DNA of 64,000 nt from a virus. Its lineage: Duplodnaviria; Caudoviricetes. How positions within the stretch are numbered: position 1 is the first letter of the stretch; each line of letters opens with the position of its first letter. The notes under the pieces are model-generated. The model made no database searches. It was not told the origin of the DNA and saw only the letters and a program-made list of their open reading frames with translations. Where the stretch lies: the IMG/VR virus record IMGVR_UViG_3300031992_000007, positions 192,001 to 256,000 of that record; one strand, given 5' to 3'. The translations under genes and the position numbers were made by a program. Positions 32,574 through 55,384 of this stretch are shown one piece after another.

Positions 32574-35500
32574 TTACCCAATAGTAATCAGCGGGGAGAG
32601 CCTATGTTTATTCCATATGAGGTTCTCAGCCATGCCAATAGGGTACTGTTTGTGTGAATACCCTATAGAACTCATAGTTCCATTACTAGGAACCTTCTGA
32701 GTGTCAGCAGGAGTCTGGGCACTGTTGTAAGACCATATTTCACCTCCGGCGGAGCGGAGCCACCAGTACTGGGCAGCAGTCGTCGAATCGCTGTACCCAT
32801 TCGCCAGATGCTGCCCAAGAGTGAGAGAATACTTGATGCGACTGTCATTCAAACTCGTGGCTCCGAACACCGCGAAGTTCTTATTGCACATCGCCCATTT
32901 CTTCAACCCGTACTTGTGGCCTTCCTGGTAGGGAATACCGTACCTGTTCTCATCGGCAACACCGAAGGTAATCCAACGACCGTTCGCTTCACCCGACCAT
33001 TCCTCGTAAACTCCGTTGTTGGCGGCGACGCCGCCAACAATCTGATTCGTCGACATGAGCCAGACCTTATCCACGCTCACGGTGCCACCGAGGTTGCCCT
33101 CTTTCACACCGGCACGAGGATAGAAGTCGAATGCACCAGTCGTACCGTACAGACCGTTGCGGTTGACTACAGGAACGATCGCGTTGAGGAAGTCATACGC
33201 ATCTTGGAGATCCGTCTTGTAGTTCGGGTTGACTTCATAGAGTCCGCACGCGTAAGGTTTGTTGGTACCGATATTGGTAACCTCCTCATACCTACCATAG
33301 AGATTCCTCTTGAAGTACGTCTTCCCTTCTACAGGAGACATATCTGCAGAACGCTTGTACTGACAATCAATGAACCCGTGGAGGAAGGACTGTCTGGGTG
33401 TACGCTGACGGGTGGTAACTGTGACTCCAGTCGTGGTTCCGGATTTTGTACCCTCGACCAGCACTATTCCACTCGCCCATCCCTGATTAGTATCAGCGAT
33501 GTTCGTTTCGTTAGTGTAGGGCGATTTGTTCTTGATCGCTCCAGTAAGCATGTACGTGCTATTCCCAGCAACACCTTTGTCAATGTAGACCATCTTGTAC
33601 ATTTCAGCAAGCTGATCGTACTTGAGTCCGTTGTTGACAGAAGGCTGTTCCGTCCACCACTGATCACCCTCGGTGAAGACAGGCACCCAGTTCCCGTTTT
33701 CATACTTGTACTGCATGACTGGAGATGCGCCGTAATTCCAGTATTTGCTAGGCTGGTTGAGATCCAGCTTCACACCTACAGGAACACCACCATCGATCTT
33801 CGTGTAGACAGGCTGTTTGCCGTTGTGAGCAATACTCCAGTCCTTGATGCTTGTGTTCTTCAGCCAGTGGTTGGAGTCAACAGCACCAGATGTAGACGTT
33901 TCTGTGAGCCTGACATACCCACCAGAGACGAACTTGTAGTAGACTCTGGAAGTTACGAAGTTGACATCAGCAGTTTCGACGTACTCCTTGGATGTATCGA
34001 AAGGTCCGTTGAGGTAGCAGCGGACATTCGACTGACACCAAACGTGGTTACCATAGGCAACACGTTCCAGGTTGGGAGTCTTGTTGAACAACCAGACGCG
34101 GAAGTTTCCATTGACGTTCTGGATCGGACCTTCGAAGACATCCGTAGTACGGAAGCAGAAGTTGGATCCCGAACCAGCACTGCTAGCGGCACTCTTGGAA
34201 GGGCTATATGTGCTCCCAGAAGCCCAGCTCGGGGTAGCTCCGAATATGTCCTTAGTGATAGGAATGTACTCGCCACTAGCGTCGAGCGCACCCATCGTCC
34301 AGACATAGTCATTAGCTGTTTTCTTCTTGGCAACGAAGTATCCCTGACCAGCACGAATAGGAACCAGATCACCGACAGAATACGTACCCGCGTAGGTAGC
34401 CGACTGAGCCGAAGTGATGGTAACGGATGTTGCAGAGGTGAAGTCCATCTTGATCCACGACGGAGTGTAGTAGCCGCTGACGGAAGCATTGTGAGCTACA
34501 CGTACACGACGATACACGTAGGGATCAGAATAGTCACCAACTGTGGTCTCATTAGAACCGCCACCAAGACGTTCATAGTAGAAGACACCAGGTTCGGACT
34601 TCTGACTTGATCCGCACGCCACCCATGTTGCCAGCCAGTACACTTTACCAGCGACGAACGTCTCATCCTGCGTAGGCATTTTGAGAAGAGGTTCGAGCGT
34701 CGGGTCAGCACCGCACACCTTGGAGAGGTTCATGTTCGGCGTTGTGGATATGCTGTAGTCCCCATCAACGTACTGTTGACACTTAGCCTTGACTTCGGCA
34801 GTCGCGTTCCGGTTGCCGAATATGCACGCGTAGATGTTGCGCAGATCGTCAGAGCAGTCGCGCATGTACACACGATACTCCGTGACGTAGTTCGTCTGCT
34901 TACTTGCAGCCGCATCTACTACATGCTTGCTGATAAGGGTTTCAGCAGGAACGAAGTACTTGATCAAGGAACTGTAGCTGGTACCAAAGATCAGGTCTTT
35001 CGTATCCTTTACCTTCCGAACTGGCATGAAGTAATCAGCCAGATGATTCGCACGAGGAGTGCAGGAACCGAGGTTCATCGTACCATCATCGATACAGTTC
35101 GCTCCCTTTCCAGTCCTCCGACAACCCGCACCCCAGGCATCCGTAACAGCTTCCAACGCCTCTGGGTTGTACATGCCGTTCTTTCCGGTGGGGTTAGTCT
35201 TGGAGTAGTACTTGTTTGAACCAGTGGATGCTGAATACAGTGCCTGTATGGCGCAGACCTTAGATGCAGACTCATACACCGTACCAGATACTGCATCACC
35301 AACGACTACAGTTTTCACTGTACCAGTATCGTTGGAGTAGTAGGTCTTGTTGGGCTGATACACAACATCCTTAGTGACGATGAAGTCGGCAGAACCCGTA
35401 GACCTACGAAGGTCGGAGCATATCACATTGCCACCATACTGAATAGAAGTTCCGCCGGGGACAACACGAGTCGCTTCCACGAACGGATTACGATACACAG

Positions 35501-36812
35501 TAGTGTACGGGAGTTCGCACTCACAAGGTGCGTTGGTAACAGACCACTTACCCCACGTCAGGCTAGCCACACCGTACGTTTCGGAACTTGCCGAGCCGTA
35601 CTCATCATTTTCCCGATTAGCATCGAATACTGTCTCGACGTAATGGTTGTAGGCCTGTTCCTGTGCGTACACTTCTTTGTGGGGAGTCGTAGCTGTATAC
35701 TCTGTGGTATTCAGCTTTATACAAGCGAAATAGACTCGGTTCAAATCACGAACGCTATCCCGAGTTGCAGCTCCTGCCCTCTCGTTGGTATCAAATACGT
35801 AACCAACGCCGTAGTGATCCCACCAGGAGTAGAGGTACTTAGACTGAAGAGTCATCGTGAACTTGACCTTCGAGTCATAAGGCTCGACGTTATCGAAGTC
35901 AACAACTTCGAAAGCCATGTCACCATAGTCGCCGTGATACGGGAGAGTGAGGATGGTTCCTATAGGGAAGTAGTCTTCCGCGATACCATTCTGCACCAGT
36001 TCCTTGATACCAGCCCAGTTGAGCAGGCAGTTCTGGTACGCGTAGTACGGAACACCCTTCTTGAACTCACGGAAACCAGCGTCGCCGATGGTCCAGTTGT
36101 CGGTGTTGTTCGGATCAACCAGTTCGTATTTGTACAAACCAGTTTCCGTATCCAGCATTCTGAAGTAGTAGTCACGATAGACTGGCTGACCTTCAGTGTC
36201 CAGAGTGTACGGATGAGCATCACTCGTGATGATGTAGTTAAAACCAGCAACACGACCGTTCTGATCGTCGTTGGTAATAGCATCATCGTCAGAGTACGGG
36301 AAGAGTTTGAAGTAGTGCTTTCTCGCACTGTTGTCCTGGAGTGTCATGCTGAATGAACCAAATGCAGCATAAGCATTCCTGGACTCGTTCGTGCAGAGAA
36401 CAGTACCGTCGTTCACAGTCAGAGGCATGTGACCAACCTGATGGACGAGAACAGTCTTCTTCCAGTGGGTGATTTCAGAGCCGACGATAACATCATCGGG
36501 GTCCTCCCAGGCCATGATGACTCGGAGCTGAGTACCATCGTCGTACATGCTGATACGAATGTTCTTGCAGTTACCCACAGAGAACCGACCAACATGCAGA
36601 TCCATCCAGTAATAAAGACCAGTTTCGGAGTCCTGAGCGCACTTGTAGAAGTGTGACTTGACGTAGCCGTCCTGGGAACCATCGAGCAGGTAAACTATGC
36701 CGAAGTTTTCAGCAGAAGCAGTAGGCAACTGCATGGTCACACGAGGCATGTTCTCCAGATCGAACTCAGTTGGAATCCACTCGTGATTCCGGATCGTATC
36801 CAATTGTTTCAT
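32574..36812 (-). CDS. Large tail/receptor-binding protein, 1412 aa, with a DUF6273/C-type-lectin-like C-terminus; expression locus of the cassette system
   Basis: FN3-like N-terminal motif shared with paralogues; GNHVWCQSNVRCYLN; DKVWLMS; terminal YWWLRSAGG...HRLSPLITIG; its last variable segment is duplicated at 51698-51857. Confidence 0.85.
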   Translation of the reverse strand: MKQLDTIRNHEWIPTEFDLENMPRVTMQLPTASAENFGIVYLLDGSQDGYVKSHFYKCAQDSETGLYYWMDLHVGRFSVGNCKNIRISMYDDGTQLRVIMAWEDPDDVIVGSEITHWKKTVLVHQVGHMPLTVNDGTVLCTNESRNAYAAFGSFSMTLQDNSARKHYFKLFPYSDDDAITNDDQNGRVAGFNYIITSDAHPYTLDTEGQPVYRDYYFRMLDTETGLYKYELVDPNNTDNWTIGDAGFREFKKGVPYYAYQNCLLNWAGIKELVQNGIAEDYFPIGTILTLPYHGDYGDMAFEVVDFDNVEPYDSKVKFTMTLQSKYLYSWWDHYGVGYVFDTNERAGAATRDSVRDLNRVYFACIKLNTTEYTATTPHKEVYAQEQAYNHYVETVFDANRENDEYGSASSETYGVASLTWGKWSVTNAPCECELPYTTVYRNPFVEATRVVPGGTSIQYGGNVICSDLRRSTGSADFIVTKDVVYQPNKTYYSNDTGTVKTVVVGDAVSGTVYESASKVCAIQALYSASTGSNKYYSKTNPTGKNGMYNPEALEAVTDAWGAGCRRTGKGANCIDDGTMNLGSCTPRANHLADYFMPVRKVKDTKDLIFGTSYSSLIKYFVPAETLISKHVVDAAASKQTNYVTEYRVYMRDCSDDLRNIYACIFGNRNATAEVKAKCQQYVDGDYSISTTPNMNLSKVCGADPTLEPLLKMPTQDETFVAGKVYWLATWVACGSSQKSEPGVFYYERLGGGSNETTVGDYSDPYVYRRVRVAHNASVSGYYTPSWIKMDFTSATSVTITSAQSATYAGTYSVGDLVPIRAGQGYFVAKKKTANDYVWTMGALDASGEYIPITKDIFGATPSWASGSTYSPSKSAASSAGSGSNFCFRTTDVFEGPIQNVNGNFRVWLFNKTPNLERVAYGNHVWCQSNVRCYLNGPFDTSKEYVETADVNFVTSRVYYKFVSGGYVRLTETSTSGAVDSNHWLKNTSIKDWSIAHNGKQPVYTKIDGGVPVGVKLDLNQPSKYWNYGASPVMQYKYENGNWVPVFTEGDQWWTEQPSVNNGLKYDQLAEMYKMVYIDKGVAGNSTYMLTGAIKNKSPYTNETNIADTNQGWASGIVLVEGTKSGTTTGVTVTTRQRTPRQSFLHGFIDCQYKRSADMSPVEGKTYFKRNLYGRYEEVTNIGTNKPYACGLYEVNPNYKTDLQDAYDFLNAIVPVVNRNGLYGTTGAFDFYPRAGVKEGNLGGTVSVDKVWLMSTNQIVGGVAANNGVYEEWSGEANGRWITFGVADENRYGIPYQEGHKYGLKKWAMCNKNFAVFGATSLNDSRIKYSLTLGQHLANGYSDSTTAAQYWWLRSAGGEIWSYNSAQTPADTQKVPSNGTMSSIGYSHKQYPIGMAENLIWNKHRLSPLITIG
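32595..32754 (-). repeat. Variable region of the 1412-aa gene; 160-bp exact inverted copy of 51698-51857
   Basis: Base-by-base comparison: CTCCGCCGGAGGTGAAATA...AAACATAGGCTCTCC is identical at both loci. Confidence 0.95.
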
Positions 36813-36919
36813 TTGACGTCCTTCACTTTTTAAGTTAGGGGATTAAACAAGCATAACATAGAGCTAAGTTGGTTCCATTTTATGTAAACTTTTATTAAAG
36901 GAAAAGGAGCAATCCGCTT

Positions 36920-37888
36920 ATGATCCGACAAATGTACGACCCGTTTAATTCGGTCATGTACGGGTTCGATGACTCCATCATCTCCATGATGGTTAGTCAG
37001 GCCTGTTACACAAAAGCTGAAGTCGACAGCAAGATCTCCTCTGTATTCAAGATCTGTGGTGAGAAAGCCACTGTTTCTGAACTACCTGCCACAGGCTCCA
37101 TCGGCGATGTGTGGATAATCACTGAGACGCATGACGAATACACCTGGGTAAAAGCTGGCAGGTGGGAACAACTCGGACCACTTATCGATACCTCTGCTTT
37201 CGCCACTGTTGCTTGGGTTAAGGAATACCTTGGACAGCTTCCTTCTCAATACAACTCCTTTGCAGAATACTTAACAGCTCTTGCTCAAGGTATTACGTCT
37301 GCCAACAACAAAGCCCAGACAGCATTGGATAAAGCCAACGCGGCTGTTACCAACGAGAATTTCGAATCGTTCAAGTCTCAGAACACTCAGGCTATCAATA
37401 ATGCCAAGAAGGCTGGAACTGATGCGCAAGCAACAGCTAACACTGCCAAGTCTACAGCGGATGCTGCACTGCCCAAGACTGAATTCGAAACCTTCAAATC
37501 CTCTAACACAACTGCTATCAACGCGGCCAAGAAGAGTGGTGATGATGCAGCTGCTGCTGTCAATAGCTTCAAGGAAGCTCAGTTAGTCTTCGAGACAACC
37601 GTCGCTTCTATAGAGAAACTCGATGGTAGTGTCAAGGTTGTTACTCAGGATGCTGTCTTCAGCAGAAGGAAAACTTACTATAAGCTTGTTGAGGAAGAAT
37701 ATGTTCCCCTCGTGCTTGGTACAGACTACCTTCCTACTTTGGCAGTTGCTGACTTCGAAGGAACTGTGTACGAAGATCGTGGTGTTAGTGTGAACGAGCT
37801 GATCGGTAAGATCAATGAACTCGTTGATGCTGGCAACATGCTTATTGCGGCTCACAAACAAGAGGCTGCTGCCAACGAAGGCGAATAA
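36920..37888 (+). CDS. Tail fibre-like coiled-coil protein, 322 aa
   Basis: AAGGAG RBS; YTKAEVD and ELPATGSIGDVW motifs; Ala-rich tandem repeat (FESFKSQNTQAINNAKKAG / FETFKSSNTTAINAAKKSG). Confidence 0.7.
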   Translation: MIRQMYDPFNSVMYGFDDSIISMMVSQACYTKAEVDSKISSVFKICGEKATVSELPATGSIGDVWIITETHDEYTWVKAGRWEQLGPLIDTSAFATVAWVKEYLGQLPSQYNSFAEYLTALAQGITSANNKAQTALDKANAAVTNENFESFKSQNTQAINNAKKAGTDAQATANTAKSTADAALPKTEFETFKSSNTTAINAAKKSGDDAAAAVNSFKEAQLVFETTVASIEKLDGSVKVVTQDAVFSRRKTYYKLVEEEYVPLVLGTDYLPTLAVADFEGTVYEDRGVSVNELIGKINELVDAGNMLIAAHKQEAAANEGE

Positions 37889-37891
37889 ACA

Positions 37892-37920
37892 AGAGGGTGG
37901 GTGTTCGCCACCCACCCTCT
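37892..37920 (+). terminator. Hairpin
   Basis: AGAGGGTGGGTG-ttcgc-CACCCACCCTCT. Confidence 0.6.
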
Positions 37921-37949
37921 AACGTCATTAAAAATTAAAGGAGTTTCTC

Positions 37950-40900
37950 ATGGCACTTGAATTCATGAAGATCCCTGGACTCCAGAAGATCCTCACGTCT
38001 CTGGACTTTAAGTCCTACCTTATCGGTGTGGACAAACTTCCAGACTATCGAGATGCTAGCTTCTGCACCTACTCCATCACGGAGGATGCTGAGGCTAGGT
38101 CGGGCAAGATCTATTACAATCGTGTTCCTCAGGCTAAGGGTGGTTACTCGTACGACCCTTGCTCTCATACCAAGCTGAACGTCGTTGACCACCTCATGGC
38201 TGCGAAGCCCTATGAGATCTGCAAGATCAAACCAGATGCTTTTCTGGTCATTGGTAAGGATGGAGCAGGCGATGGGGCAAGTACTCTCTTCCACTACTGC
38301 ACCTTCGATAACAGTGGCAAGCTTGAGACTGTCAGTCTTGATTCGATCGTTATCAGCAATGATAAATACCTGTACTATTACAGGGATGTCGAATCCAAGT
38401 CTCTCAAGCCCCTTACGTTCATTCAGACCAGTTCTGGTTTGATGATTCGTGCTCGTAGGAACTTCTACGGTAGACCTACAAGTGGCACGGTTGAACCTGG
38501 TGGACTTCCATCTCCTGCAGGTAATACATACTGGTATCTCAATGGTGATAAGTGGACTGCAATACCTAGCTCCACTGTTGGTTCAGTTGCTACCTACGAA
38601 GAGACCAACAACAGGGTTGTCTACCTTCGTGTCAAGACAGATGAAATCAACACACTCAATGCTCTCACTCTCTACAACTGCGGGTGGTACCTTGGTCACG
38701 TTAACAGCGAGACGATCTACAATGTTGACTTGAAGATGGGTGCTCTTACTGAGTACAACATCTCTGCTGGATCTCCCATGGCTGAAAGAGCTCTCAGCTA
38801 CACCAACGACACTGTCTTCGTCCGTGATAAGGTCTACTACATCAAGAAGACTGACCTTGTTCTCGACAAGGTTACAGTCCACAACACTTCCAGCGAACTG
38901 GACGTTTCTATCTACAACGTCAACTGGCTGTTCAGCAACTTCGTAGTGTTGTCCAAGTCTGATCCTGAAATTGGTTATGGTGGTTATGCTTCAGTAGCTG
39001 CATGGAAAGCTGATCATCCTGACTACGAGCTCTACGAAGAGACAACCAACTTCTGGATCCAGCCTGATGGGTTCGTTGGAACTCTCACTCGTAACCACGA
39101 CTGGTACGAGCGTGTAGGTGATCGTTTCCCGTACGCTGGATTTGTGGCTATCGCTACTTCCAAGTACAACGGTCAGCAGATCGGTGGTTTCTACCACGCC
39201 AAGATGAAGGAGTACCAGCTCACTGAGGATACTGTCCATCACTTCAGGTGGTTGGATGAAGATCACACCCAGGCTGAGTCCAAGACGTACTACGAGTGGA
39301 ATGATGCCACTAACGTCTACACTCCCAGGGATGGTAGTCCTGGCAATCTGATCTACCGCGCGGTCGATGGAACAGACTACTTCCAGAAACCCATGACTTC
39401 TGTGTTCGAGGAAGGCGAAACCTACTACACGTACAGCAGCGGTTCTGGTTACACTGAACTCACTGGTTGGACTCCTGTGGATCCTATTCCTGGCAATGTC
39501 TTCATTGACAACAGACCGTTCTACTACAGGAACGGTTGGACGATCACTGAAGTTGAGACCAGGTATGGTGTGACTACAGACACGACAGTTGTTGCTGGTA
39601 AGCAGTACTTCATCTCCACTGGCACCAACTCCTTCAGTCAGATCGGTGTTAGGGAAGACGGTTCCGACTTCTTCACTACCACCAACGATGATGTATTCAA
39701 GGAAGGTAAGCAGTATTACTACTGCGACAGAGACAATGCCAGTAAGACAGGTCTGCAGAAGTTCACCGCTTTCGATTCCTCTGCGTACATCGGTAAGTCT
39801 ATCAACTCTCAGTCGAGGACTATCTACGAACGCAACAAGGATGGTGGCATTCCTACTGAGGTCCAGATCTGTGTCAAGTTCGACAAGTATGATGGAAGAT
39901 TCGATGGCATAACCATCCCGAACGATGTTGATGTCGTTGTCGAGTCTTTGAATGGTGAACCTATTCTCCAGGATGCTTATTACGAAGCCTGCAAGGGCAT
40001 GTATGTCTGGGAGCAGTACTTCATCGAACGTGGCACTTCGGTTACCAAGCCCTACAATGTTCAGGCTGTTTACATCGACAGTGAGTCTAAGGTCACTCTG
40101 AACCTGATGTGGACCGATCCTAAGTTCATGCTCCACAAAGACGACCCGACTATGGCTCCTGATGCGTGGGCTAAGACGGACGTCGACCTGGAGTACGAGA
40201 AGGATGAGAACGGAGCGAAAGTCAAACGAGTCATCCGTCTCGTGTCTGAGGTTGCTACCAACGACGTGTATGCGGACAACTTCTTTACTGTAGATGGTGA
40301 TTCTGCTATCACTTTCGATGGTGCTACCATTAGCAGGAGTGAGTTCTCTACTGCTGTCAAGACTGGTGTTATCAGGATAACTGCAACCGCTGTGACTGGT
40401 ATTACCTCTGAGTATGTAGTTCGTCCTAGCAAGGTTGTGTGGGTCAACTCCACGAAGGGGTTCGTATCCCTTCTTGGTGGTACGGCTGTTACTGGAGTTC
40501 GCTACTACACGATCAACTCCGACGGTAACGAAACCGAACTCGCTGATGTTGTTCCCTATGTGACGGATGTAAGCTCTGACAAGATCTACATCAAGTACCA
40601 GAAGGAGATCGAGACTTACGTTGATGACGACAATGGCGTCAAACGTATGATCATCATCGGTGACAGTGCTCACAAGGACGGAACTATCGTGCCAGAGAAC
40701 GTTGGACTCTTCACTCGTGTTACCGAGAACCCTGAAATAACAGTCAGGGAGATCGTTCGTGCTGGTCTGTTCGACAAACTCTTCGCTTCTGCTAGTGGTG
40801 GGTATAACCTAACTGGCGCTCTGCTTGGACAGGTTCCTCTTACAACAGCTGTAGGTAGCAACCCCGATCTAGCCAATGTAACTGTGGTTGACTCTGACGG

Positions 40901-42662
40901 TGTGTCCCTCGGGTACAACATCGAACAGGGTTACGTTGACGTGCTCCAGGGAGAGACTAGAGAGTACATCACTCTCGATCCTCACCATGTTTACTACACG
41001 AGGCAGAGTGTTACCGAGAAGGCGTGTAATGCTGATGAGGCAGATGCCAACAACGTCTACTACGAGTTCGCTAAAGTTGTCGACATCACTAAGTTCTACG
41101 AGGATACATCGGGTAGGTTCAGCAACACTGAGGCGAACAAGGGTATCCTGTTCTCCAGGTCTAGCGACCTCCCTCACTACAGACACTACATCAACTCCAA
41201 GAATGTGGTTGTCCGTGGAGCTACCGATCTGTTCGAAGTTGGTGTGACATACAGCGTTCGTAAGGAAGGAGTTGTGGAGTTCGTGACTCTGCATCCTGAC
41301 TATCGTGGACCTGACTCTGGTGAACCCAAGGTTACCACTACTCAGTATTACTACTATACTGGAGTGGCAGGTGATCTGTGGGATGCTATCACAATGAAGT
41401 CTGCTGCTATCCAACCGGCCAATGGGGCAGTCTATTTGGATCAGCCTTCCAACGGCAAAGCTAATAGGCTGTACAAGGTAACAACTGGTACATTCGAATC
41501 CGGCAAGATCTATTACGGAAAGACCAAGACTGTTGGACAAGCTGGAGCACCGTCGACTTACAGTCTTCCGGTCAAACTCGATGCAGGGGTGGATTACGAG
41601 GTAGATGGTGATATCGCCGATAAAGCCTCTGAGACTAACCTGATCTACAGGGTAGATGTGGAAGACATCGATACTAACGAGGCTGACTTCTCTGCCTCTT
41701 GGGCTAGAGAGGATAGTACTAGTGTCGAAGGGTATGGTCTGTGGAAGTTCATGGGGTGGAAGTTCTATCCTAACAGGAAGTACTACATCCACTACAACGA
41801 TACTCCTGGTGGTCCTGCTGAGTACCATATCGGGGAGAATGTGCTTGCTTGGTCCAGCGCTCATGACACTGCTGTGTACGTTGAACGTCCTGGTGTGAGT
41901 GAGTTCCTTGACGTCACTGACTTCGGTATCGATGCCCTTCGTGGTTGTACAGTTCCTCTGTACATCAAGGATAAGGCTATCGTCGACAAGAAGAAACAAG
42001 ACGTCTATGTCGCATTGGACAGACCTAGACACAGTGCTACCTTCAGGTATCAATATCCATTGAACCAACAGGCATTCGTGCAGGCTTTAGGTGCAGATCC
42101 ATCTAAGGTATACTGGGATGAGTCTGGCATCAGGTCAACGCTTGCTCAGTTGGAACCGACCCTTGGTGACGATCCTGATGAAACTATGTTCCAGAAGTAC
42201 ATGGACTATGTGGAGTTCTATGAGAATCACATCATCCCTGCGATCTCCACTGTGTTCAAGAACTGGAGAGTTGTCGGTGAAGGAGAAGGAACACGAGTTG
42301 AATTCGATACTGCTCGAGTATTCGACAAGTTCTGGATACCTTGCTTAGGCAACTTCGTTCAAGATGAAGTCTACGACCACGTGAATGGTGCGGTCATCTC
42401 TGGTATTCCTTCTGAGGATGGTGGACTTGACTTGTATGCCAAGGGCATAGGTCAGGCTCACAACGCAGAAGCACTGAAGATGGCTCGTCAGATCCACTCG
42501 TCGGCGTCTTCAAATACACATGTGGTCTGGGCACTTCGTACTTGTCCTAGGTACACTGCAGGCGGAACTCCGGTGGTGATTGCTGTTGATGCAGATGGCA
42601 ACTTCGTCACTCGGAACAAGCTGACCTCTCTGTATATCGTTCCTCACTTCACGATCGCTTAA
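37950..42662 (+). CDS. Very large tail/receptor-binding paralogue, 1570 aa
   Basis: AAGGAG RBS; TxD...GK.YY repeats; WTDP...WAKT motif; C-terminal YWDESGIRSTL, DKFWIP, WALRT...IVPHFTIA. Confidence 0.75.
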   Translation: MALEFMKIPGLQKILTSLDFKSYLIGVDKLPDYRDASFCTYSITEDAEARSGKIYYNRVPQAKGGYSYDPCSHTKLNVVDHLMAAKPYEICKIKPDAFLVIGKDGAGDGASTLFHYCTFDNSGKLETVSLDSIVISNDKYLYYYRDVESKSLKPLTFIQTSSGLMIRARRNFYGRPTSGTVEPGGLPSPAGNTYWYLNGDKWTAIPSSTVGSVATYEETNNRVVYLRVKTDEINTLNALTLYNCGWYLGHVNSETIYNVDLKMGALTEYNISAGSPMAERALSYTNDTVFVRDKVYYIKKTDLVLDKVTVHNTSSELDVSIYNVNWLFSNFVVLSKSDPEIGYGGYASVAAWKADHPDYELYEETTNFWIQPDGFVGTLTRNHDWYERVGDRFPYAGFVAIATSKYNGQQIGGFYHAKMKEYQLTEDTVHHFRWLDEDHTQAESKTYYEWNDATNVYTPRDGSPGNLIYRAVDGTDYFQKPMTSVFEEGETYYTYSSGSGYTELTGWTPVDPIPGNVFIDNRPFYYRNGWTITEVETRYGVTTDTTVVAGKQYFISTGTNSFSQIGVREDGSDFFTTTNDDVFKEGKQYYYCDRDNASKTGLQKFTAFDSSAYIGKSINSQSRTIYERNKDGGIPTEVQICVKFDKYDGRFDGITIPNDVDVVVESLNGEPILQDAYYEACKGMYVWEQYFIERGTSVTKPYNVQAVYIDSESKVTLNLMWTDPKFMLHKDDPTMAPDAWAKTDVDLEYEKDENGAKVKRVIRLVSEVATNDVYADNFFTVDGDSAITFDGATISRSEFSTAVKTGVIRITATAVTGITSEYVVRPSKVVWVNSTKGFVSLLGGTAVTGVRYYTINSDGNETELADVVPYVTDVSSDKIYIKYQKEIETYVDDDNGVKRMIIIGDSAHKDGTIVPENVGLFTRVTENPEITVREIVRAGLFDKLFASASGGYNLTGALLGQVPLTTAVGSNPDLANVTVVDSDGVSLGYNIEQGYVDVLQGETREYITLDPHHVYYTRQSVTEKACNADEADANNVYYEFAKVVDITKFYEDTSGRFSNTEANKGILFSRSSDLPHYRHYINSKNVVVRGATDLFEVGVTYSVRKEGVVEFVTLHPDYRGPDSGEPKVTTTQYYYYTGVAGDLWDAITMKSAAIQPANGAVYLDQPSNGKANRLYKVTTGTFESGKIYYGKTKTVGQAGAPSTYSLPVKLDAGVDYEVDGDIADKASETNLIYRVDVEDIDTNEADFSASWAREDSTSVEGYGLWKFMGWKFYPNRKYYIHYNDTPGGPAEYHIGENVLAWSSAHDTAVYVERPGVSEFLDVTDFGIDALRGCTVPLYIKDKAIVDKKKQDVYVALDRPRHSATFRYQYPLNQQAFVQALGADPSKVYWDESGIRSTLAQLEPTLGDDPDETMFQKYMDYVEFYENHIIPAISTVFKNWRVVGEGEGTRVEFDTARVFDKFWIPCLGNFVQDEVYDHVNGAVISGIPSEDGGLDLYAKGIGQAHNAEALKMARQIHSSASSNTHVVWALRTCPRYTAGGTPVVIAVDADGNFVTRNKLTSLYIVPHFTIA

Positions 42663-42676
42663 GAGATCAATACTGG

Positions 42677-42724
42677 CCCTCTCTACCCTTCGTGGGTAGA
42701 GAGGGTTGGTTGCTTTTATTTTTT
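42677..42724 (+). terminator. Intrinsic terminator of the 1570-aa gene
   Basis: CCCTCTCTACCC-ttcgt-GGGTAGAGAGGG followed by a T-rich run. Confidence 0.75.
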
Positions 42725-42725
42725 A

Positions 42726-43269
42726 GGAGGTGTAGGATCTATAAGCAAGATGGCGTTGTGGTTAGTCTTAGGATTTCAGCACAACACAATGATAAACAAT
42801 CAAGATTTTTCGTGGTGGAACAACACTAGATTCAGTCATCTTGCAAACTCAGAACAGATAAGGCTCTCCTGGAGGTGACTATATTGGTCCAGAATCAGAT
42901 AAATTTGAAAACCACCGGAATGCAAATTGTCAACACAAATCTTCAGGACTAGCACAGGGTGTAGAAGTTAATGGATCGAATACAAATAAGCTAGCATGGC
43001 TCTCCAATGAGGTGGAAACTTCTTAATTGAAATAGGCAAAGGTGGAGGTTGGATACGTGGTGCAACAGACGGCTGGGGACTAATGCCACAAATGGAACGC
43101 AACACTGAATCCAATGGAACTAAAAGACACGAAAGGCTCTCCAGGTGGATTCGGTATTCTGTCAGCAACTCCTTGGTATGTCTACGCAGGTGGGAATGAA
43201 AATTTTAATGGCGCAGTGGTATCATCATTGATTTCCATTAATATAAACTATTTCCCCAAAGGGCTCTCC
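42726..43269 (+). repeat. Silent cassette array 1 (4 cassettes)
   Basis: GGCTCTCC ends at 42869, 43005, 43142 and 43269. Each unit reads open from GGT to CTC-TCC: GVGSISKMALW...EQIRLS; GDYIGPESDK...KLAWLS; GGNFLIEIGK...RHERLS; GGFGILSATP...FPKGLS. Confidence 0.9.
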
Positions 43270-43300
43270 TCCACTAACTCCCAAAAAAAAATAAAAGAGC

Positions 43301-43328
43301 CACCAGGGTCCCCGCGGGGACCCTGGTG
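43301..43328 (-). terminator. Intrinsic terminator of the minus-strand operon
   Basis: CACCAGGGTCCC-cgcg-GGGACCCTGGTG with an adjacent A-run on the + strand. Confidence 0.75.
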
Positions 43329-43345
43329 CTCCAACCCTTTAGTAT

Positions 43346-43489
43346 CTACTTCTTCTTTTCCGGATCCTTGTCCTTCGGACCACGGAAACTTTCCACAGCA
43401 ACTCCGATGCCCAGTATAACTGCACCCGATAGTACAACGAACCCGATGCTCAACCCGAATATCCCCAGTATAACCTTGAGTGTTTCCAT
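43346..43489 (-). CDS. Small membrane protein, 47 aa
   Basis: Hand translation METLKVILGIFGLSIGFVVLSGAVILGIGVAVESFRGPKDKDPEKKK; TGATG overlap with the upstream stop. Confidence 0.55.
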   Translation of the reverse strand: METLKVILGIFGLSIGFVVLSGAVILGIGVAVESFRGPKDKDPEKKK

Positions 43490-44805: not shown

Positions 44806-44935
44806 TTGATTTCTCCTTTGAAATAAGAGTTAGTATATGATAGATCTGGGCAATATTATGCACGCAAATTCTGGTGCACTACCCAAAGGGTCTCACTGTC
44901 GAGACTCATATGATTTATAAAGGAGAATATCAACC

Positions 44936-45502: not shown

Positions 45503-45559
45503 GAAGAAAAGAAAGTGGATCCCTAGGTCGCCCTTAGGTGGGCGACCTAGGTTAGCTAT

Positions 45560-46168: not shown

Positions 46169-46187
46169 CTCAGTAAGTCTTTCGTAG

Positions 46188-47117: not shown

Positions 47118-47204
47118 AAAACTCCTTGTAAACTTTAGAGTGGACTATAAAATTGCAGAACCATCCTTCTCCCACAAGGGGAGAAGGACGATCCTAGCAT
47201 TTGT

Positions 47205-49372: not shown

Positions 49373-49456
49373 AAGAACCCTCCTAAAAATAAAAGTCATA
49401 AAATTGAGGCACCTCTACCCACACAAGGTGGGTAGAGGGTTCGCAACGTGAGGGAT

Positions 49457-50497
49457 TTATTTCTTGCCAGTTGTTTCGGATGCCTTCTTGTTGGCACCAT
49501 TGAGACACTTGACCTGTTTGCCGAATGCGCGGAGGCACTTGGCGTAGCAGGCGTAGGCAGATGTCTCAGCACGGCACGCCATCTTGGCCATACTGAACGC
49601 AGAGCCGATCATGTTGCCTTGAACGTTGAGAGACTTGAGTCTCTTCATCAGTTCACCAAGACGAGTAGCTTTACCTTTATTGTCAAGGAAGTACTTGGCG
49701 AGCTCAACAGCAGCTGTAGCTGTCCAGCCAGCAGTGGAGAGGACTTTCTTCTCGCGCTTGAGAGCCTCGTCCATGATGGTAACCTTACCGTCTTCAGCCT
49801 TGAGGATGTTGTTACTCTTGGCAACGAACGCAGAGATGTCCTTGTTGAGGTTCTCTGCAACGTTCTTAAACTCGTTGGAGTTGTCACCTTCTGCCGACAC
49901 ACCAGTTATCTTAGCAGTCGAAACCAAGAAGTAGTTCTTGACATCAACATGCTTCGCGACGAATGCATTGAGTCCCTCGCATGCCTCCCTCAGATTCTTG
50001 ACCTGTTCGACAGTGAGCGTCTCCTTCTCAGCAGAGAAGTCGATGTCGTTACCTTTGGTATCGATGATCTTCTGTGCCTGAGCAGAAGCCATGTTAAACA
50101 GTTTGGCGAAGAAGTTGGCAATAGTGTCGATGATGTTGGCGATGAACTTCTTGAGTCCTTCCCAAACTTTGGTCATGTTGTCCTTGATAGCTTCTTGAGC
50201 TATCTGAGGAGTAATAGCTTCCGTGGCATAACCCGTGAGCTGGGTAAGATCTCCACCAGCGTTGAGCTGCTCGATAGCTTCCTTCGTGTAGAAACCATCA
50301 ACCAGAGCAGCTGCCAGAGTGTGAAGGTTCTCGAGTACAGCGAAGACCTCATCGCAGGCTTTGTCTTGAGCAACGAGTTCCTGATAGAACTCTTCTGCAG
50401 CCTGGACTTCGTTGAAGATGTCAATAGCTTCCTGAGCAGGTTCGAACTGACGTTCGTTGCTGGGAACAGTAGTTCCAGAAAGTGCGTATCTGTTCAT
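49457..50497 (-). CDS. Internal head protein (phiKZ inner-body-like family)
   Basis: AAGGAG RBS; acidic propeptide, ATE/AQE sites, then KVWEGLKKFIANIIDTIANFFAKLF helix. Confidence 0.65.
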   Translation of the reverse strand: MNRYALSGTTVPSNERQFEPAQEAIDIFNEVQAAEEFYQELVAQDKACDEVFAVLENLHTLAAALVDGFYTKEAIEQLNAGGDLTQLTGYATEAITPQIAQEAIKDNMTKVWEGLKKFIANIIDTIANFFAKLFNMASAQAQKIIDTKGNDIDFSAEKETLTVEQVKNLREACEGLNAFVAKHVDVKNYFLVSTAKITGVSAEGDNSNEFKNVAENLNKDISAFVAKSNNILKAEDGKVTIMDEALKREKKVLSTAGWTATAAVELAKYFLDNKGKATRLGELMKRLKSLNVQGNMIGSAFSMAKMACRAETSAYACYAKCLRAFGKQVKCLNGANKKASETTGKK

Positions 50498-50501
50498 TGG
50501 A

Positions 50502-50978
50502 TTATTCTCCTTGTGAAATTTTGGCAATACCTTTGTCTTTAATTGCCTTGATGAGTCTGTCTACAAATGGTGCAAAGCCTTTTTCTCCTGCAGTCAGGGT
50601 TCCCATGTTCTTGTTGACTTGTACAGCAGAGTCGTCGAAGAAACAAATCATCGAACAACCTTTCTCCGATGTAACCGGAAGTCGTTCTCCAATGTACTGT
50701 TCTGTCCAGTCTTGGATGACTTTCTCAACCTGTTCGAAAGTAAGTCCATCCACAGCTCTAGACTCAGCAGAACATCTAGCCGTGAAAATCTTGCACTGAA
50801 TACCAACAGCTCTCAGTTTCTTGATAAGGTTGACCATTGCTGATATTGGGTTGCCGATATGCTGCCAACCTTTGAACTCGGTGTACTCAGCAACAGTCCC
50901 GTCTAGATCAAACCCAACCCACCCTTCAGGAAGCTGTTTGGCATTCGACTCTGTTGATATAGAGTATTTAAAGGACAT
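50502..50978 (-). CDS. HAD-superfamily hydrolase-like protein, 158 aa
   Basis: DLDGT motif I, IFTAR motif II, K and FFDD; AGGAG RBS. Confidence 0.75.
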   Translation of the reverse strand: MSFKYSISTESNAKQLPEGWVGFDLDGTVAEYTEFKGWQHIGNPISAMVNLIKKLRAVGIQCKIFTARCSAESRAVDGLTFEQVEKVIQDWTEQYIGERLPVTSEKGCSMICFFDDSAVQVNKNMGTLTAGEKGFAPFVDRLIKAIKDKGIAKISQGE

Positions 50979-51016
50979 AAGATCCTCCTATCATGAAAAT
51001 CATAAAATGTGTTATA

Positions 51017-51857
51017 AGGTGAAGGATGTAATGTCATGACGTATAAGTGGGATGGGAGTCCGACGATACATCCCTACGAGAACGGTTTACCAAATGCCGC
51101 TGCTGTTCGCAAAGAACTAAAATGGCTCTCCAGTTAGAGAGGTGGAATAGAACAACAAGGAAAACATAGACAGGAAGTAAATTGTGTTGCTGGTGCGTGG
51201 TGGAACTATGGAGGACTTGATTCATATATGAATCAACCACCATGTGGATTGATCGTACACCCTAGGCTCTCCATCAGGAGGTGGGTTTCTACAAGTGCAG
51301 AAACTAACAGAGACGTATGTAAACGTAATAGCTGGCGGACCTCCTGGAACAGCGGGGTATGCACAAGGCATCTATCCGTTATTTGACGCATCGGGTTACA
51401 ATAGGCTAGGAAGGCTCTCCTGAGGTGAGACTGTAAAAGATGCCAGCAAAGAAAACACTTATTACGTTTGTGAACTATGGAGGATAGATGATTTAGGTCA
51501 ACCACAAGCACCTGAAGCATATGGACGAGATTGGGCATCTGGTTCAACTATCCTCACCAGGCTCTCCAGGGAGGTGAATACAGAAACGCTGCGAATGGAG
51601 AAATACAATGGCACTATGTCCCAACTCTCCTTAAGTGGATAAAGACGGATGGAGATTATTGGAAGTACAGTAACAATATGTCCTACACGGAATGGCTCTC
51701 CGCCGGAGGTGAAATATGGTCTTACAACAGTGCCCAGACTCCTGCTGACACTCAGAAGGTTCCTAGTAATGGAACTATGAGTTCTATAGGGTATTCACAC
51801 AAACAGTACCCTATTGGCATGGCTGAGAACCTCATATGGAATAAACATAGGCTCTCC
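51017..51857 (+). repeat. Silent cassette array 2 (6 cassettes); the last is identical to the expressed segment
   Basis: GGCTCTCC ends at 51131, 51272, 51420, 51567, 51701 and 51857. Open units: GEGCNVMTY...LKWLS; GGIEQQGKH...HPRLS; GGFLQVQKL...LGRLS; GETVKDASK...LTRLS; GEYRNAANG...TEWLS; GEIWSYNSA...KHRLS. Confidence 0.92.
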
Positions 51858-51915
51858 GAACAAAAAAAGAAAGGACCCGCAAGGGTCCTCCCTCGGGAGA
51901 AGCGAAAGCTTCTCC

Positions 51916-52488
51916 TCACCAGTACGAATCGCCGTCATCTTCGGGCGGCATGAGCGACTTGATCATCTTGGAACGGTTGTTCTCAATACCGTTTCTCCAG
52001 CTGATGTACGTCTCTATGACCTTGTCAGCGAGGTCGATAGATATCGCTGTCTGGGTCAACAGCTCGTACGCATTCTCCAACTTGAGAGTCGTATCGATCG
52101 CGCCTCCGAATATGTCGACGTTGAACGTGGGATGTTCACCGATCTTGCGGATAAGGCACTGCCGCTCTGCAGATCCGTCAGGGGAATGAATGTTCTTATA
52201 CTTGAGATCGAAGCCGTTCCTAGACATGGTTTCACCACCAGGATCGTCTCCAAGTTTCTCAGTTATTTTAACATACCTTCCACCATCGGCAAAGTGCAGT
52301 TCGGAGATAGCCGTCCCACCTTCCATCTCAAAGATTTCGCAGAGCTGCGTATAGCAATCCCGTTCCTTCTCCAGGCAAGACGTGAGCTTTTCAACCACGA
52401 TCTTTCCTAGTTCAGGTATACGATTCGTATACTGCTCGTCGAGCTTCTTGATGTTGTCGAGCGCTTCCTTGAACTTGTTGCTGTCCAT
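51916..52488 (-). CDS. Hypothetical early protein, 190 aa
   Basis: AAGGA RBS; early-like promoter at about 52524-52534; terminator hairpin at 51872-51889. Confidence 0.7.
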   Translation of the reverse strand: MDSNKFKEALDNIKKLDEQYTNRIPELGKIVVEKLTSCLEKERDCYTQLCEIFEMEGGTAISELHFADGGRYVKITEKLGDDPGGETMSRNGFDLKYKNIHSPDGSAERQCLIRKIGEHPTFNVDIFGGAIDTTLKLENAYELLTQTAISIDLADKVIETYISWRNGIENNRSKMIKSLMPPEDDGDSYW

Positions 52489-52639
52489 CGGTTGTTTCCT
52501 TTTCTTTAGGGGGTTAATGTTTATGACACCCTAGTAATGTATATCCAACCAGTTTCGATTAACACAAAAAGTAAAGTACCACTCTACCTCCCACCCGGGA
52601 GGTAGAGCAGCACTAGACTTTGTAGTCAGTCTAAACTGT

Positions 52640-53080
52640 TTAGCTTTCGAGTCCGTTGATGAACGTGAGGAGCTCGAAGAGAACCTCTTCCGAAGTCCAC
52701 TTCTGCTTCTGATCGTTCAGCTCCCGGACCGTCGCATCGTTCGACTCCGCGTCGTGGATGTTGTAATCCCCGTTCTTGTTGAAGGAGAACTGCACCATGA
52801 TGGAGTCACCCGTCTTCGACACCTCGACCTTCGAGACCCAGGTCATATCGCAGAAGCGAGCTTTGCTGGCACGAAGGCCATTGATGCTCACCTCTGGAAG
52901 AGACTTTGGATCACACGGAAACTCGACCATTCCGATCGGGTATTCCGCATCGTCGATGACCGCGTAGTTGGATCCCTTGAATTGACCCTGCGCGAGCAGG
53001 AGACATTCCTCAGGAAGCCCTTTGACCGTTTCCCGCTTGATGTAACGGGGCTGGTTGAATGTTGACTTGAGTGTTTGCAT
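52640..53080 (-). CDS. Hypothetical early protein, 146 aa
   Basis: Early-like promoter TATATATTAC at about 53134; hairpin at about 52582-52608. Confidence 0.65.
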   Translation of the reverse strand: MQTLKSTFNQPRYIKRETVKGLPEECLLLAQGQFKGSNYAVIDDAEYPIGMVEFPCDPKSLPEVSINGLRASKARFCDMTWVSKVEVSKTGDSIMVQFSFNKNGDYNIHDAESNDATVRELNDQKQKWTSEEVLFELLTFINGLES

Positions 53081-53163
53081 TTGTCTTTACCTACCTTTCT
53101 TGATTTGAATTGGTTAGACTAGACTACACCCAAGTAATATATAAACCAACAAAAACGAATGAC

Positions 53164-54051
53164 TTATTTCAGCATCGTTCCCCTGCATTTGCCAAATTGC
53201 TGTTCGCCTCTGATGAAATTGATCAGCTCTTTCATGGTATTGCATTTGTTGACATCATCTACGAGGAAGCCGATATCGAAGAACTTACATATAGCTGTGG
53301 ACAATTCGCTACCGACATTAATAGGCCAGTACTTGCCGAAGACTCCCTTGGTCGTATGATTAGTGAACGTACAACCACTAAGGTTGTACTTCATACACAT
53401 TTCCTTAAACTTAGAGATGGCGAACTGATAGTTCTCGTCCTTCTCTAGATCAGGGTCAGCTTGTTCGTCTTTCTCTGACTCTTCGGGCAGGTGAGCTATC
53501 ACGTCGTTAACTATCCTCTCTATTGCTTCCTTGGTTCCATCCAAGGTTAGCATTTCCAATTTGTATTGACAGTCTTTTCCTTCTGTAAAGAAGGTGTAGA
53601 GATCCTTGGCTATTTGATCTGACTCCTCTTCTGTCTGCAGTCTGCCTTTTGGATTATACTTCTTCTTGCGGTTGAGGAAGTAGTTCAAATTAGTAAAACT
53701 ATTAGCTACGTCATAAACTACCCTGTCAAACGAAGCGAAATCTGTAAGAACCTGATGGTCTTTGCACTGCCTCAAGTAGAAGCTGTTGAGATAGATAGGA
53801 GAATCTGTAATAAGAACATCAGCCCCACCTCTACACCTGTTCATCCTGTAGAACTGTTTGCCTAGAAGATAGAGTTGACTGCCATCCTTGAATGGAGCAG
53901 GATTCTCTTCCCAGACTTTGTCCTTAGCGAACTCAGTAATAAGTTCTGCATTGACCCCTTGCCACTTGAGCTCTTCGAAGACTCCTGCTGCGATAGTTGA
54001 CTTACCTGTACCAGGAGCAGCGATAAGGTTGACTACTATTGGCTTAATCAT
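53164..54051 (-). CDS. P-loop kinase/ATPase (NadR-like/AAA_28 type)
   Basis: VNLIAAPGTGKST Walker A, E.AKD.VWE, LITDSP and GRLQTEEES motifs; AAAGGA RBS before MIKPIVV. Confidence 0.7.
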   Translation of the reverse strand: MIKPIVVNLIAAPGTGKSTIAAGVFEELKWQGVNAELITEFAKDKVWEENPAPFKDGSQLYLLGKQFYRMNRCRGGADVLITDSPIYLNSFYLRQCKDHQVLTDFASFDRVVYDVANSFTNLNYFLNRKKKYNPKGRLQTEEESDQIAKDLYTFFTEGKDCQYKLEMLTLDGTKEAIERIVNDVIAHLPEESEKDEQADPDLEKDENYQFAISKFKEMCMKYNLSGCTFTNHTTKGVFGKYWPINVGSELSTAICKFFDIGFLVDDVNKCNTMKELINFIRGEQQFGKCRGTMLK

Positions 54052-54102
54052 GATGGTTGTTGTCCTTTCTAAAGGAATGTCTATCGATGGGAAATAAATA
54101 CT

Positions 54103-55384
54103 GGAGGTGGAATGGGGGCCAAGATAGTGAACGACAGTGGATACGGACCAAGTCATAATTACAATCCATCACCGTGTGAGTTGTTTTACGATTGGTATTC
54201 TGGTTATTACTTTACAGATAAATTAAGGCTCTCCGTGTTGGAGGTGGCGCAGACGAATCACAGGCTTGTTGGTTATGGCGGGTGTTCGGAAACAATATGG
54301 ATGAGATTGTACAACCAGGGCTTGCTTCAACATCCACAAGGTTCGAGAAATCAATATCCTACAAAGCTGTAAATAGGCTCTCCAGAGAGGTGAGACTTCT
54401 CAATCCGATATTCGCCAACAACTGTGGGGAACAAACTGCCTTTACGTAATGGGGTACGATAGTAACTATGGAAGAATAGAGGGATACTACTGGGCACCAC
54501 GTATTGAATCAGAGCGGGTTAAATATAGGCTCTCCTTTATCAGGAGGTGGAATACAAAATCAATGGAAGGTAGATTACAAAGAAGAATGCTCTCAAACGT
54601 GGTTGATTTGGGCAAATGGAAATTGGTCTAGTGGTGATCCTGGGAATCATGGTAGACAACCGATGGATAATGTAGTAAGGCTCTCCGCCGGAGGTATACC
54701 TAAAATCTCTGAAGAAAAACATGCTCAGTGGATGTTGACAGTGTGGGGCATTAATGGTATAGTTAGAGATAACTGGAGTGGGTCTAACAATGGCTCTGGG
54801 TACCCTAGTCGTAATGAAGATAGGCTCTCCAGTTTGGTATATAGGTGTATACAACCATCATTCGCAAATCTATTACATATTTACAGATATTACGACTCCG
54901 TACAGAAATTCTGGAGATGTGTATTATGCTGATGAAATTGGATGGCCCTTAGCTACTAGACAAAATAGGCTCTCCAGGTGAAGCTACGCATCCAAGTGCT
55001 ATGAACTCAGCATTTGGTTCCACTGGTGGATATGTAAATTCTAACTACACAATATCAGCTGCTACGTTTGAGCAAATATCGAACTGGCCAAATGATCCTC
55101 TATACGTAAGAGATCATAGGCTCTCCGAGGTGAGCGTAGTGGAGGTCAAGTAGCTGGCAACATCGGTCTTACTCTAACATCAGGATTTAGTGCATGGGAT
55201 AAAACATGGAATATCGATATCGTATCGCGACAATATGGGCTCTCCAAAAGGTGATGGAACTAGGATTCATTACTTTCTTGAAAGTGTTTGGGTAGCCCAG
55301 CCATGTCAAGGTCAATTCGACCAAGGCCTGAGATCCGAAGGAAACAACACATATCCAGCTAATGAAAAATACCACTGGCTCTCC
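54103..55384 (+). repeat. Silent cassette array 3 (9 cassettes)
   Basis: GGCTCTCC ends at 54234, 54383, 54535, 54686, 54830, 54975, 55126, 55245 and 55384. All nine units are open from GGT to CTC-TCC, e.g. GGMGAKIVND...KLRLS; GETSQSDIRQ...KYRLS; GEATHPSAMN...DHRLS; GDGTRIHYFL...YHWLS. Confidence 0.92.

Follow-up and report, generated by a model that had tools for sequence, protein, structure and literature searches.

Silent-cassette gene conversion is a recognized source of antigenic variation and operates in Borrelia vlsE/vls, Treponema pallidum tprK, Neisseria pilE/pilS, Mycoplasma genitalium MgPar and Anaplasma msp2. In yeast mating-type switching, HO cuts at MAT and one of the silent loci HML and HMR is copied there, guided by long stretches of homology in the flanks (the W/X and Z regions). 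In phages, receptor-binding proteins are known to acquire new targets by other routes: mutagenesis by diversity-generating retroelements (DGRs), invertase or shufflon switches, and slow modular exchange between phages. The present analysis concerns a stretch of 64,000 nucleotides (hereafter the window) from a virus of the Caudoviricetes, IMG/VR record IMGVR_UViG_3300031992_000007, in which the gene for a tail-fibre-like protein of 1412 amino acids (aa) ends in a segment bordered by the same two short anchor sequences as arrays of silent cassettes. The best explanation of this arrangement, and in our judgement a probable one, is a genome-wide library of silent donor cassettes serving a single expression site, with the copying route and the function that we infer for it below.

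The genome analysed is the complete 265,480-bp virus record (completeness rated 100%), of which the window represents bases 192001-256000; it is designated G000, the loci of relatives L0xx and the proteins of relatives P00xx. It holds one expression site. The gene closes with WWLRSAGG, the variable segment, HRLS, PLITIG and a stop codon, so that the same two anchors that delimit the silent units bracket the last segment of the protein, as an original prediction made from the letters of the window had proposed. The gene lies in a tail module, with a neighbour matching the tail-fibre profile phrog_3904 and a paralogue carrying the domain of unknown function DUF6273 nearby. The elements of the expression site and of the window arrays are the following.

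32574..36812, minus strand: expression gene for the 1412-aa tail-fibre-like protein, with the last ~50 residues swappable; assigned from the open reading frame (ORF), the orthologues P0002-P0037 and the tail-module context.
32595..32750, minus strand: expressed cassette including both anchors, 156 nt, 100% identical to 51702-51857.
32741..32754, minus strand: 5' junction of the expression site, CTCC-GCCGGA-GGTG, containing the 5' anchor GGAGGTG; the same GC[CA]GGAGGT[GA] is present in all relatives.
32595..32602, minus strand: 3' anchor GGCTCTCC of the expression site, followed by CCGC to give the GC-only 12-mer GGCTCTCCCCGC.
32545..32594, minus strand: constant tail PLITIG-stop and an inverted repeat beginning 2-3 nt past the anchor, with individual folds per lineage.
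42729..43269, plus strand: silent array of 4 cassettes, with terminator-like hairpins on either side at 42672-42710 (plus) and 43301-43328 (minus).
51018..51857, plus strand: silent array of 6 cassettes; the terminator of the convergent gene lies at 51867-51894 (minus).
51702..51857, plus strand: silent twin of the expressed cassette (160-nt identity), last unit of the 6-cassette array region, with the expression-site flank GCCGGA just before it.
54106..55384, plus strand: silent array of 9 cassettes, with a terminator at 55403-55428 (minus).

The 3' anchor GGCTCTCC occurs 20 times in the 64-kb window against 2.15 expected, a count that none of 100 shuffles reaches; 19 copies are on the plus strand, in the three arrays, and the remaining one is on the minus strand at 32595-32602, at the 3' end of the 1412-aa ORF. 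The original prediction had located the arrays of 4, 6 and 9 units to within 1-3 bases and had read all 19 units as stop-free peptides of 38-50 aa, and both statements held: each unit runs without a stop from the GGT of AGGT[G/A] to CTCTCC over a multiple of three. A library of 19 cassettes proved correct for the window but too small for the genome, where 52 silent cassettes of 37-51 codons were found in 10 intergenic arrays, bordered by (G)AGGT[G/A] and [A/T/G]GGCTCTCC. Fifty of them are on the plus strand in nine loci, namely the three window arrays and, in genome coordinates, 1424-2268, ~11100-11913, 56724-57695, 96973-97791, 136018-136719 and 262969-263112. The other two are on the minus strand (11100 to 10854 in G000), head-to-head with the second plus-strand locus. 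In this region (G000 10854-11913) the two minus-strand cassettes face a 6-unit plus-strand array at CACCTCATGGTG and the first plus-strand unit carries the variant anchor TGGTG, an arrangement reminiscent of a scar left by inversion at a 5' anchor. Nearly all silent arrays lie on the strand opposite the expressed gene and, since ~78% of the long ORFs are on the minus strand, they are antisense to local transcription. The 3' end of nine of the ten arrays abuts an A-run with a hairpin, the intrinsic terminator of a convergent gene.

The cassettes are open in a single frame. Over the 52 silent cassettes the anchor frame is free of stop codons, each of the five alternative frames containing 80-208; the joint probability of an open anchor frame in 52 of 52 is ~1e-66 by composition-matched shuffles. 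They are mutually unrelated, with a median identity of 19%, and rich in Gly, Ser, Asn, Tyr and Trp (Trp 4%). Homologous silent cassettes, compared within and between genomes, display a ratio of non-synonymous to synonymous substitution (dN/dS) of 0.18-0.53 at dS 0.6-1.5, which indicates that they are maintained as coding sequence despite being silent. The arrays might be expressed on their own as small proteins, as a polyprotein or as structured RNAs, the likeness to the end of the gene then being mere paralogy, and the resemblance of the 5' anchor GGAGGTG to a Shine-Dalgarno sequence would suit such a view. However, the spacers of 1-13 nt are evenly spread modulo 3 (14/12/15), so that no single frame runs through an array, and many contain stops; start codons do not occur consistently, and 25 of 49 cassettes, read upstream, meet a stop before any in-frame start; the arrays have terminators on either side; and cassettes demonstrably turn up inside the gene. 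Missing starts, spacer lengths and spacer stops led us to reject the polyprotein and small-protein versions, in agreement with the earlier statement that the cassettes lack their own starts, and we give independent expression in any form a negligible chance.

Codon usage at the borders was compared over 88 cassettes from seven genomes. The last two codons are CTC TCC in 88 of 88, against a background in the genes of this phage where CTC represents 32% of Leu and TCC 21% of Ser codons, and the preceding codon is AGG in all 66 cassettes ending in Arg, AGG being 27% of Arg codons in the background. In L066, the most distant relative with a fetched locus, the WLRS codons upstream of the cassette are synonymously changed (TTA AGG TCA) and the 3' anchor with the following CCGCT is kept unchanged. 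The anchors are thus constrained as DNA.

Two lineages link an expressed cassette to a silent one in the same genome. In G000, the twin at 51702-51857 matches the expressed segment over 160 of 160 nt, the identity running 4 nt further in the 5' direction and stopping exactly at the 3' anchor. The second case comes from relatives of the 1412-aa protein, which are known from metagenome assemblies only. The family is rare, with nine representatives among 1.84 billion proteins, and recurs across many metagenome samples. Its members share the pattern YWWLR[S/T]AGG, 40-55 unrelated aa and [R/W/G]LSPLITIG, and the DNA anchors are identical in seven related metagenomic phages. Within clusters formed at 90% identity, backbones 96-99.9% identical carry cassettes ~20% identical: P0004 and P0017 are 99.9% and P0005 and P0019 99.7% identical outside the cassette, and cluster 7 holds seven different cassettes among ten full-length proteins from separate assemblies that are 97.9-99.1% identical elsewhere. 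At the level of DNA, the 24.7-kb loci L066 and L068, from two samples, have identities of 99.66% and 99.58% in the stretches flanking the cassette, and the cassette itself (14561-14708) is the only place where they differ. The expressed cassette of L068 matches a silent cassette of its own locus (598-761, opposite strand) over 161 of 164 nt, both copies share three substitutions missing from the copy in L066, and one change is specific to the expressed copy. Because the donor cassette is still in place in L068, the transfer was non-reciprocal and took place within that lineage. The homology available at the L066/L068 junctions amounts to CCGGAGGT on the 5' side and AAGGCTCTCC on the 3' side. 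The six relatives with fetched flanks also carry arrays with the same anchors, opposite to the gene, with 9, 3, 14, 1 and 1 units in the visible parts.

These comparisons show that the stretch between WWLRSAGG and LSPLITIG-stop takes one cassette at a time, that replacement is non-reciprocal with the donor staying in its array, and that 5-10 bp of anchor identity suffice for transfer. As far as comparative data can establish it, a copy-type cassette library is well established, and the whole-segment swapping put forward in the original prediction finds support in the 160-nt twin and in the L068 copy. An expression site invariant across relatives would have spoken for another interpretation; proteins 96-99.9% identical with unrelated cassettes, and two loci that differ nowhere else, show that it varies. 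That switching is regulated, or programmed as initially worded, is our inference.

The highly conserved flanks could equally support homologous recombination between co-infecting related phages, which would swap alleles while the arrays served as archives or decayed as relics, and all the variation is indeed found between samples and none within one clone. However, the expressed cassette equals a silent cassette of its own genome in two lineages, L068 even sharing lineage-specific substitutions; identity stops exactly at the anchors and not in the flanks; and the silent cassettes are under purifying selection, with perfect anchors and frames. We consider exchange of this kind quite improbable. 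Several relatives (P0020, P0021, P0022, P0036, P0008, P0037 and P0010) have truncated, frameshifted, internally duplicated or multi-unit ends after WWLRS, which may be failed conversions or consensus artefacts of mixed populations. The contigs of P0025 and P0026 (L069 and L070; 48.6 and 37.5 kb) both stop 21-25 nt past the stop codon of the variable gene, as one would predict for assemblies that break at a cassette which is repeated or polymorphic.

The junctions of natural variants are asymmetric. The 3' junction is always GGCTCTCC|CCGCT and the 5' junction floats by a few bases within GGAG/GGAGGT, being GCCGGAGGT|A in L066, GCCGGAGGT|G in L068, GCCGGAG|AGGTC in L069 and GCCGGAG|TTGGTG in L070. 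The flank of the expression site is also met in the arrays. GCCGGA stands before five cassettes of G000 and GCTCCGCCGGA before one of the five, both being that flank joined after CTCC; besides the twin, the unit 54693-54830 of the 9-cassette array has GCCGGA before it. In L064, the expression-site flank reads GCAGGA and so does an array spacer. Since array spacers equal the expression-site flank and co-vary with it, sequence also moves from the expression site to the arrays, and these back-flow copies have an exact 3' end and a 5' end at microhomology. Three of the five cassettes with the flank footprint are the last unit of their own array (hypergeometric p=0.043), a hint that archiving is ordered.

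Some expression sites contain cassettes in tandem. That of L064 reads gene, a, spacer, b, spacer with a stop, c, PLITIG, and its sister locus L071 reads gene, c, 9-nt spacer, d, PLITIG, all in frame; tandem cassettes of this sort fit copying that overshoots to a later anchor and could also be assembly walks through repeated cassettes. In L072 (JGI contig Ga0265298_10027905, reverse strand 5700-6040), a 2-unit array is joined directly to PLITIG-stop and the downstream flank. The upstream flank of this array is orthologous to that of the G000 array 56724-57695, and the cassette at the junction is the one expressed by P0009. A crossover between twin cassettes may have produced an inversion in L072, or the contig may be an assembly chimera; in both cases its junction cassette exists in a silent and in an expressed form.

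An inverted orientation of the arrays relative to the gene, a choice of alternative C-terminal tips and the L072 contig, which joins an array to the 3' flank of the expression site, might also call to mind a site-specific recombinase of the Gin, Cin, Min, Rci or Rin type that flips or exchanges cassettes at the anchors, as in a shufflon. Yet neither tyrosine recombinases (Phage_integrase, PF00589) nor serine recombinases (Resolvase, PF00239) gave a match in the whole genome with a search that matched control genomes; donors are retained, so exchange is not reciprocal; a single inversion at the 5' anchor would read into an out-of-frame or stop-carrying spacer; and the arrays are 6-220 kb away from the gene. 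The missing recombinase matches and the retained donors led us to discard the shufflon, which appears most improbable. Taken together, the asymmetry of the junctions, the back-flow, the tandem cassettes and L072 favour synthesis-dependent copying.

The same survey of the complete 265-kb genome, in which control genomes matched, returned no candidate for a reverse transcriptase (RT; RVT_1, PF00078) and no match for RecA or Y1_Tnp; HNH gave one sub-threshold match only. In six relatives, the gene calls within 10 kb of the variable gene include no RT. Two further candidates were rejected on these results: phage-encoded RecA-dependent recombination, for lack of a RecA match in the genome, and an HUH mechanism of the IS200/IS605 type, for lack of a Y1_Tnp match in the genome. 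A candidate accessory factor is encoded just downstream of the variable gene.

29821..30822, minus strand: Avd-like gene, 333 aa, matching phrog_3206 ('Avd protein of DGR') with E=1.3e-7.

The match covers residues 5-140 of the protein and positions 3-130 of the 154 in the profile, and all seven orthologues match phrog_3206 as well, with E-values from 1.3e-7 to 3e-9. In every relative the Avd-like gene follows the variable gene downstream at a distance of 0.3-1.7 kb, and in L066, L067 and L068 the two are directly adjacent. The protein comprises an N-terminal helical domain, a conserved linker and a tail rich in Pro, Glu and Lys, with no enzyme domain in the C-terminal half; its Atlas score to a bAvd cluster is 0.85, to be taken as a lead only. 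The Avd-like gene and the next fibre gene are separated by a gap of 370 bp, where a 119-aa ORF (29532-29891, minus strand) overlaps the 3' end of the Avd-like gene; it holds no anchor or cassette-like sequence at the position where the template repeat (TR) of a DGR would sit.

DUF6273 is a C-type-lectin-like domain diversified by DGRs at its C-terminal end, where the variable repeat (VR) is located (PMC10743442; bioRxiv 10.1101/2024.10.15.618418). By language-model features, the C-terminal domain of the 1412-aa protein resembles DUF6273 clusters with a score of 0.96 (29 of 30 matches), and from these features alone the target tip is probably C-type-lectin-like. A Pfam hmmscan of the protein at E<=10 was negative, alignment to the neighbouring DUF6273 family by hhalign gave a probability of 19%, and neither BLASTP against the 435-aa paralogue nor a PDB profile search gave a match. 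The neighbouring 583-aa protein, 4.4 kb away in the same module, is a bona fide DUF6273 protein (E 8.6e-8). The sequence that follows the 3' anchor folds into a hairpin in each lineage individually, with no common covarying structure among lineages.

On this ground a DGR-like retrohoming devoid of mutagenesis deserves to be weighed, in which the arrays would be transcribed, an RT (divergent, host-encoded or acting in trans) would copy cassette RNA and the complementary DNA (cDNA) would replace the segment, with priming at the GC-rich 3' anchor as an analogue of the IMH (initiation of mutagenic homing site), resolution of the 5' side by microhomology and the Avd-like protein as cofactor. The constant neighbourhood of the Avd-like gene and its target in all relatives, the location of the variable segment in the last ~45 aa of the domain resembling DUF6273, the copy-type transfer with a fixed 3' and a floating 5' junction, and the inverted repeat directly after the anchor, in keeping with the hairpin or inverted repeat that must follow the IMH in BPP-1 homing (PMC3240598), all point in this direction. 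Against it stand the absence of a PF00078 match from a genome rated 100% complete and of an RT within 10 kb in the six relatives, the lack of any change specific to adenine (the 160 nt of the window show no difference at all, and the expressed copy in L068 has a single change of its own), the position of the arrays between terminators and antisense to local transcription, and the back-flow into the arrays, which is not a property of DGRs. We regard such retrohoming as unlikely.

Returning to the library of silent donors, its operation may be pictured as follows. A DNA end or nick at an anchor would pair with the same short anchor at another cassette, and the paired end would prime DNA synthesis across the donor; the new strand would return at the second anchor, where short homology would resolve the copy. 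Such a route would amount to template switching that depends on synthesis and is guided by microhomology, a gene conversion that needs no long homology, and overshoot to a later anchor would leave the tandem cassettes of some expression sites. The Avd-like protein would be the best candidate for a specificity or accessory factor. Each replacement would alter the ligand-binding surface of a probably C-type-lectin-like receptor-binding tip and might thereby change the host range.

Several observations weigh against this scheme. No nuclease or polymerase can be assigned to it from the genome, and 5-10 bp is, to our knowledge, unusually short for any characterised gene-conversion pathway. The Avd call comes from one PHROG profile, with no match to Pfam bAvd (PF22296) or in a PDB profile search. 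The DUF6273 (PF19789) hidden Markov model (HMM) gives no match on the 1412-aa protein even at E<=10, and AlphaFold2 models of the C-terminal domain from 7- and 21-sequence alignments reach a pLDDT (predicted local distance difference test) of 37 and 36. Variation is seen between samples only, in genomes whose identity over the 24.7 kb compared is 99.6% or more; as all relatives are metagenome assemblies, a repeated cassette can mislead the assembler, and the tandem sites of L064 and L071 as well as the array-to-PLITIG junction of L072 may be assembly walks and not real molecules.

The surroundings of the expression site and of the arrays call for some remarks. The 583-aa (26383-28134) and 435-aa (28143-29450) fibre-like proteins, both encoded on the minus strand, belong to the same module as the 1412-aa protein, have no anchors and display no variation between L066 and L068; the 435-aa protein ends in YVILSIG, similar to PLITIG, and has an N-terminal W-x-DP motif in common with the 1412-aa protein. 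On the other side of the variable gene, a 1570-aa ORF (37950-42662, plus strand) without Pfam or PHROG match also adjoins this gene in L062-L065 (1535-1562 aa), and in G000 as in these relatives the nearest silent array always sits after its terminator. Three paralogues on the minus strand (49457-50527, 55464-56789 and 56801-57883) have weak-to-borderline matches to PF12699, the phiKZ-like internal head proteins (best E 1.7e-6), which supports a phiKZ-like jumbo phage; the second and third window arrays (51018-51857 and 54106-55384) sit among these phiKZ-like head genes. Further along, adjacent genes for an isochorismatase-family (nicotinamidase-like) protein and an NAD synthase (59312-60798, minus strand; Pfam E 1.9e-18 and 2.3e-47) possibly form an NAD-salvage module of this phage; such modules have been proposed to counteract defences that deplete NAD.

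The original prediction knew of no such system in phages, and we likewise found no published description of a cassette-copying tip library in viruses in the full-text literature, subscription journals lying outside its coverage; libraries of this sort are described for bacteria and parasites. An exact scan of IMG/VR for the anchor pattern returned only collagen-like Gly-Ser-Pro repeats, protein-guided scans of IMG/VR gave no relatives, and the one metagenome scan yielded two loci. If the interpretation is true, a virus that copies dozens of pre-made, selected binding segments into one gene would follow a fourth route to retargeting, close in logic to antigenic variation in Borrelia, Treponema and trypanosomes. 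With anchors of 5-10 bp and neither a known recombinase nor a known RT in the genome, the machinery that does the copying may be new and could then be of use where segments are to be replaced precisely and with scar-defined borders. One scaffold tolerates more than 80 different inserts, which would also represent a natural panel for the study of lectin-like tip binding and for host-range experiments on laboratory phage-host pairs.

Compared with DGRs, the locus presents a mixture of likenesses and differences. As with BPP-1 Mtd and with the DUF6273 ('tentaclin') and Mtd-like targets (PMC10743442, PMC3240598), the part that is diversified comprises the final ~45 residues of a tail protein that is probably C-lectin-like, a template directs the replacement, which is of the copy type, and an Avd-like gene (by one PHROG profile) lies next to the target. 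The GC-rich 3' boundary GGCTCTCCCCGC and the inverted repeat after it recall the IMH and hairpin of BPP-1, without covariation here. However, this phage genome encodes no RT; adenine mutagenesis is not seen (0 of 160 nt in the window; 3 of 164 in the L068 copy, with no adenine pattern); 52 mutually unrelated templates take the place of one TR ~90% identical to the VR; these templates are scattered over 260 kb; and sequence flows back from target to template. A classical DGR was rejected on the absent RT, the absence of adenine mutagenesis and the lack of a single TR. The Avd-like gene and the likeness to DUF6273 nevertheless hint at DGR ancestry, which we treat as a lead. On a tentative view, to which we attach less confidence than to the donor library as such, the system might be an RT-less descendant or relative of DGRs, in which an Avd-like factor and the GC-rich anchor with its hairpin would direct an enzyme to overwrite the C-terminal binding segment of a lectin-like tip from ~50 archived cassettes, expressed cassettes being written back; a system with such a two-way store of receptor-binding solutions would be a new class of protein diversification, targeted and directed by templates.

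Invertible segments and shufflons (Mu Gin/G, P1 Cin/C, p15B Min, R64 Rci, and the Rin shufflon in Bifidobacterium prophages; PMC6109161) similarly store alternative C-terminal tips for one fibre gene. Theirs are reciprocal, recombinase-catalysed inversions at 20-30-bp sites beside the gene, whereas here no recombinase is encoded and the donors are retained and distant. In the T4-type adhesins gp38/gp37, conserved glycine-rich motifs flank hypervariable segments (PMC3157838), so that short conserved motifs bracket receptor-binding segments and act as recombination points, as in this phage; exchange there occurs between phages over evolutionary time and there is no intragenomic silent library. 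Yeast mating-type switching, where a silent copy replaces the expressed one by synthesis-dependent copying with the donor unchanged, offers a model for the idea of a break at one site; yeast has long homology and a known endonuclease at its disposal, in contrast to the sub-threshold HNH match of this genome.

The closest parallels are found in vls, tprK, pilS, MgPar and msp2, where a single expression site is likewise served by promoter-less, in-frame donors through non-reciprocal copying with retention of the donor. The inverted orientation of the donors relative to the expression site is shared with vls, their dispersal over the genome with MgPar and the very short flanking repeats with tprK. 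Unlike vls, tprK, pilS, MgPar and msp2, this system is carried by a virus and produces a receptor-binding tip instead of an immune-evasion antigen; the cassettes have no internal similarity (median identity 19%), which leaves only the 5-10-bp anchors to guide copying; cassettes are replaced whole and not as patchworks; and no RecA or RuvAB-type machinery is encoded. The functional class is that of silent-cassette gene conversion, in a form not homologous to vls, tprK, pilS or MgPar.

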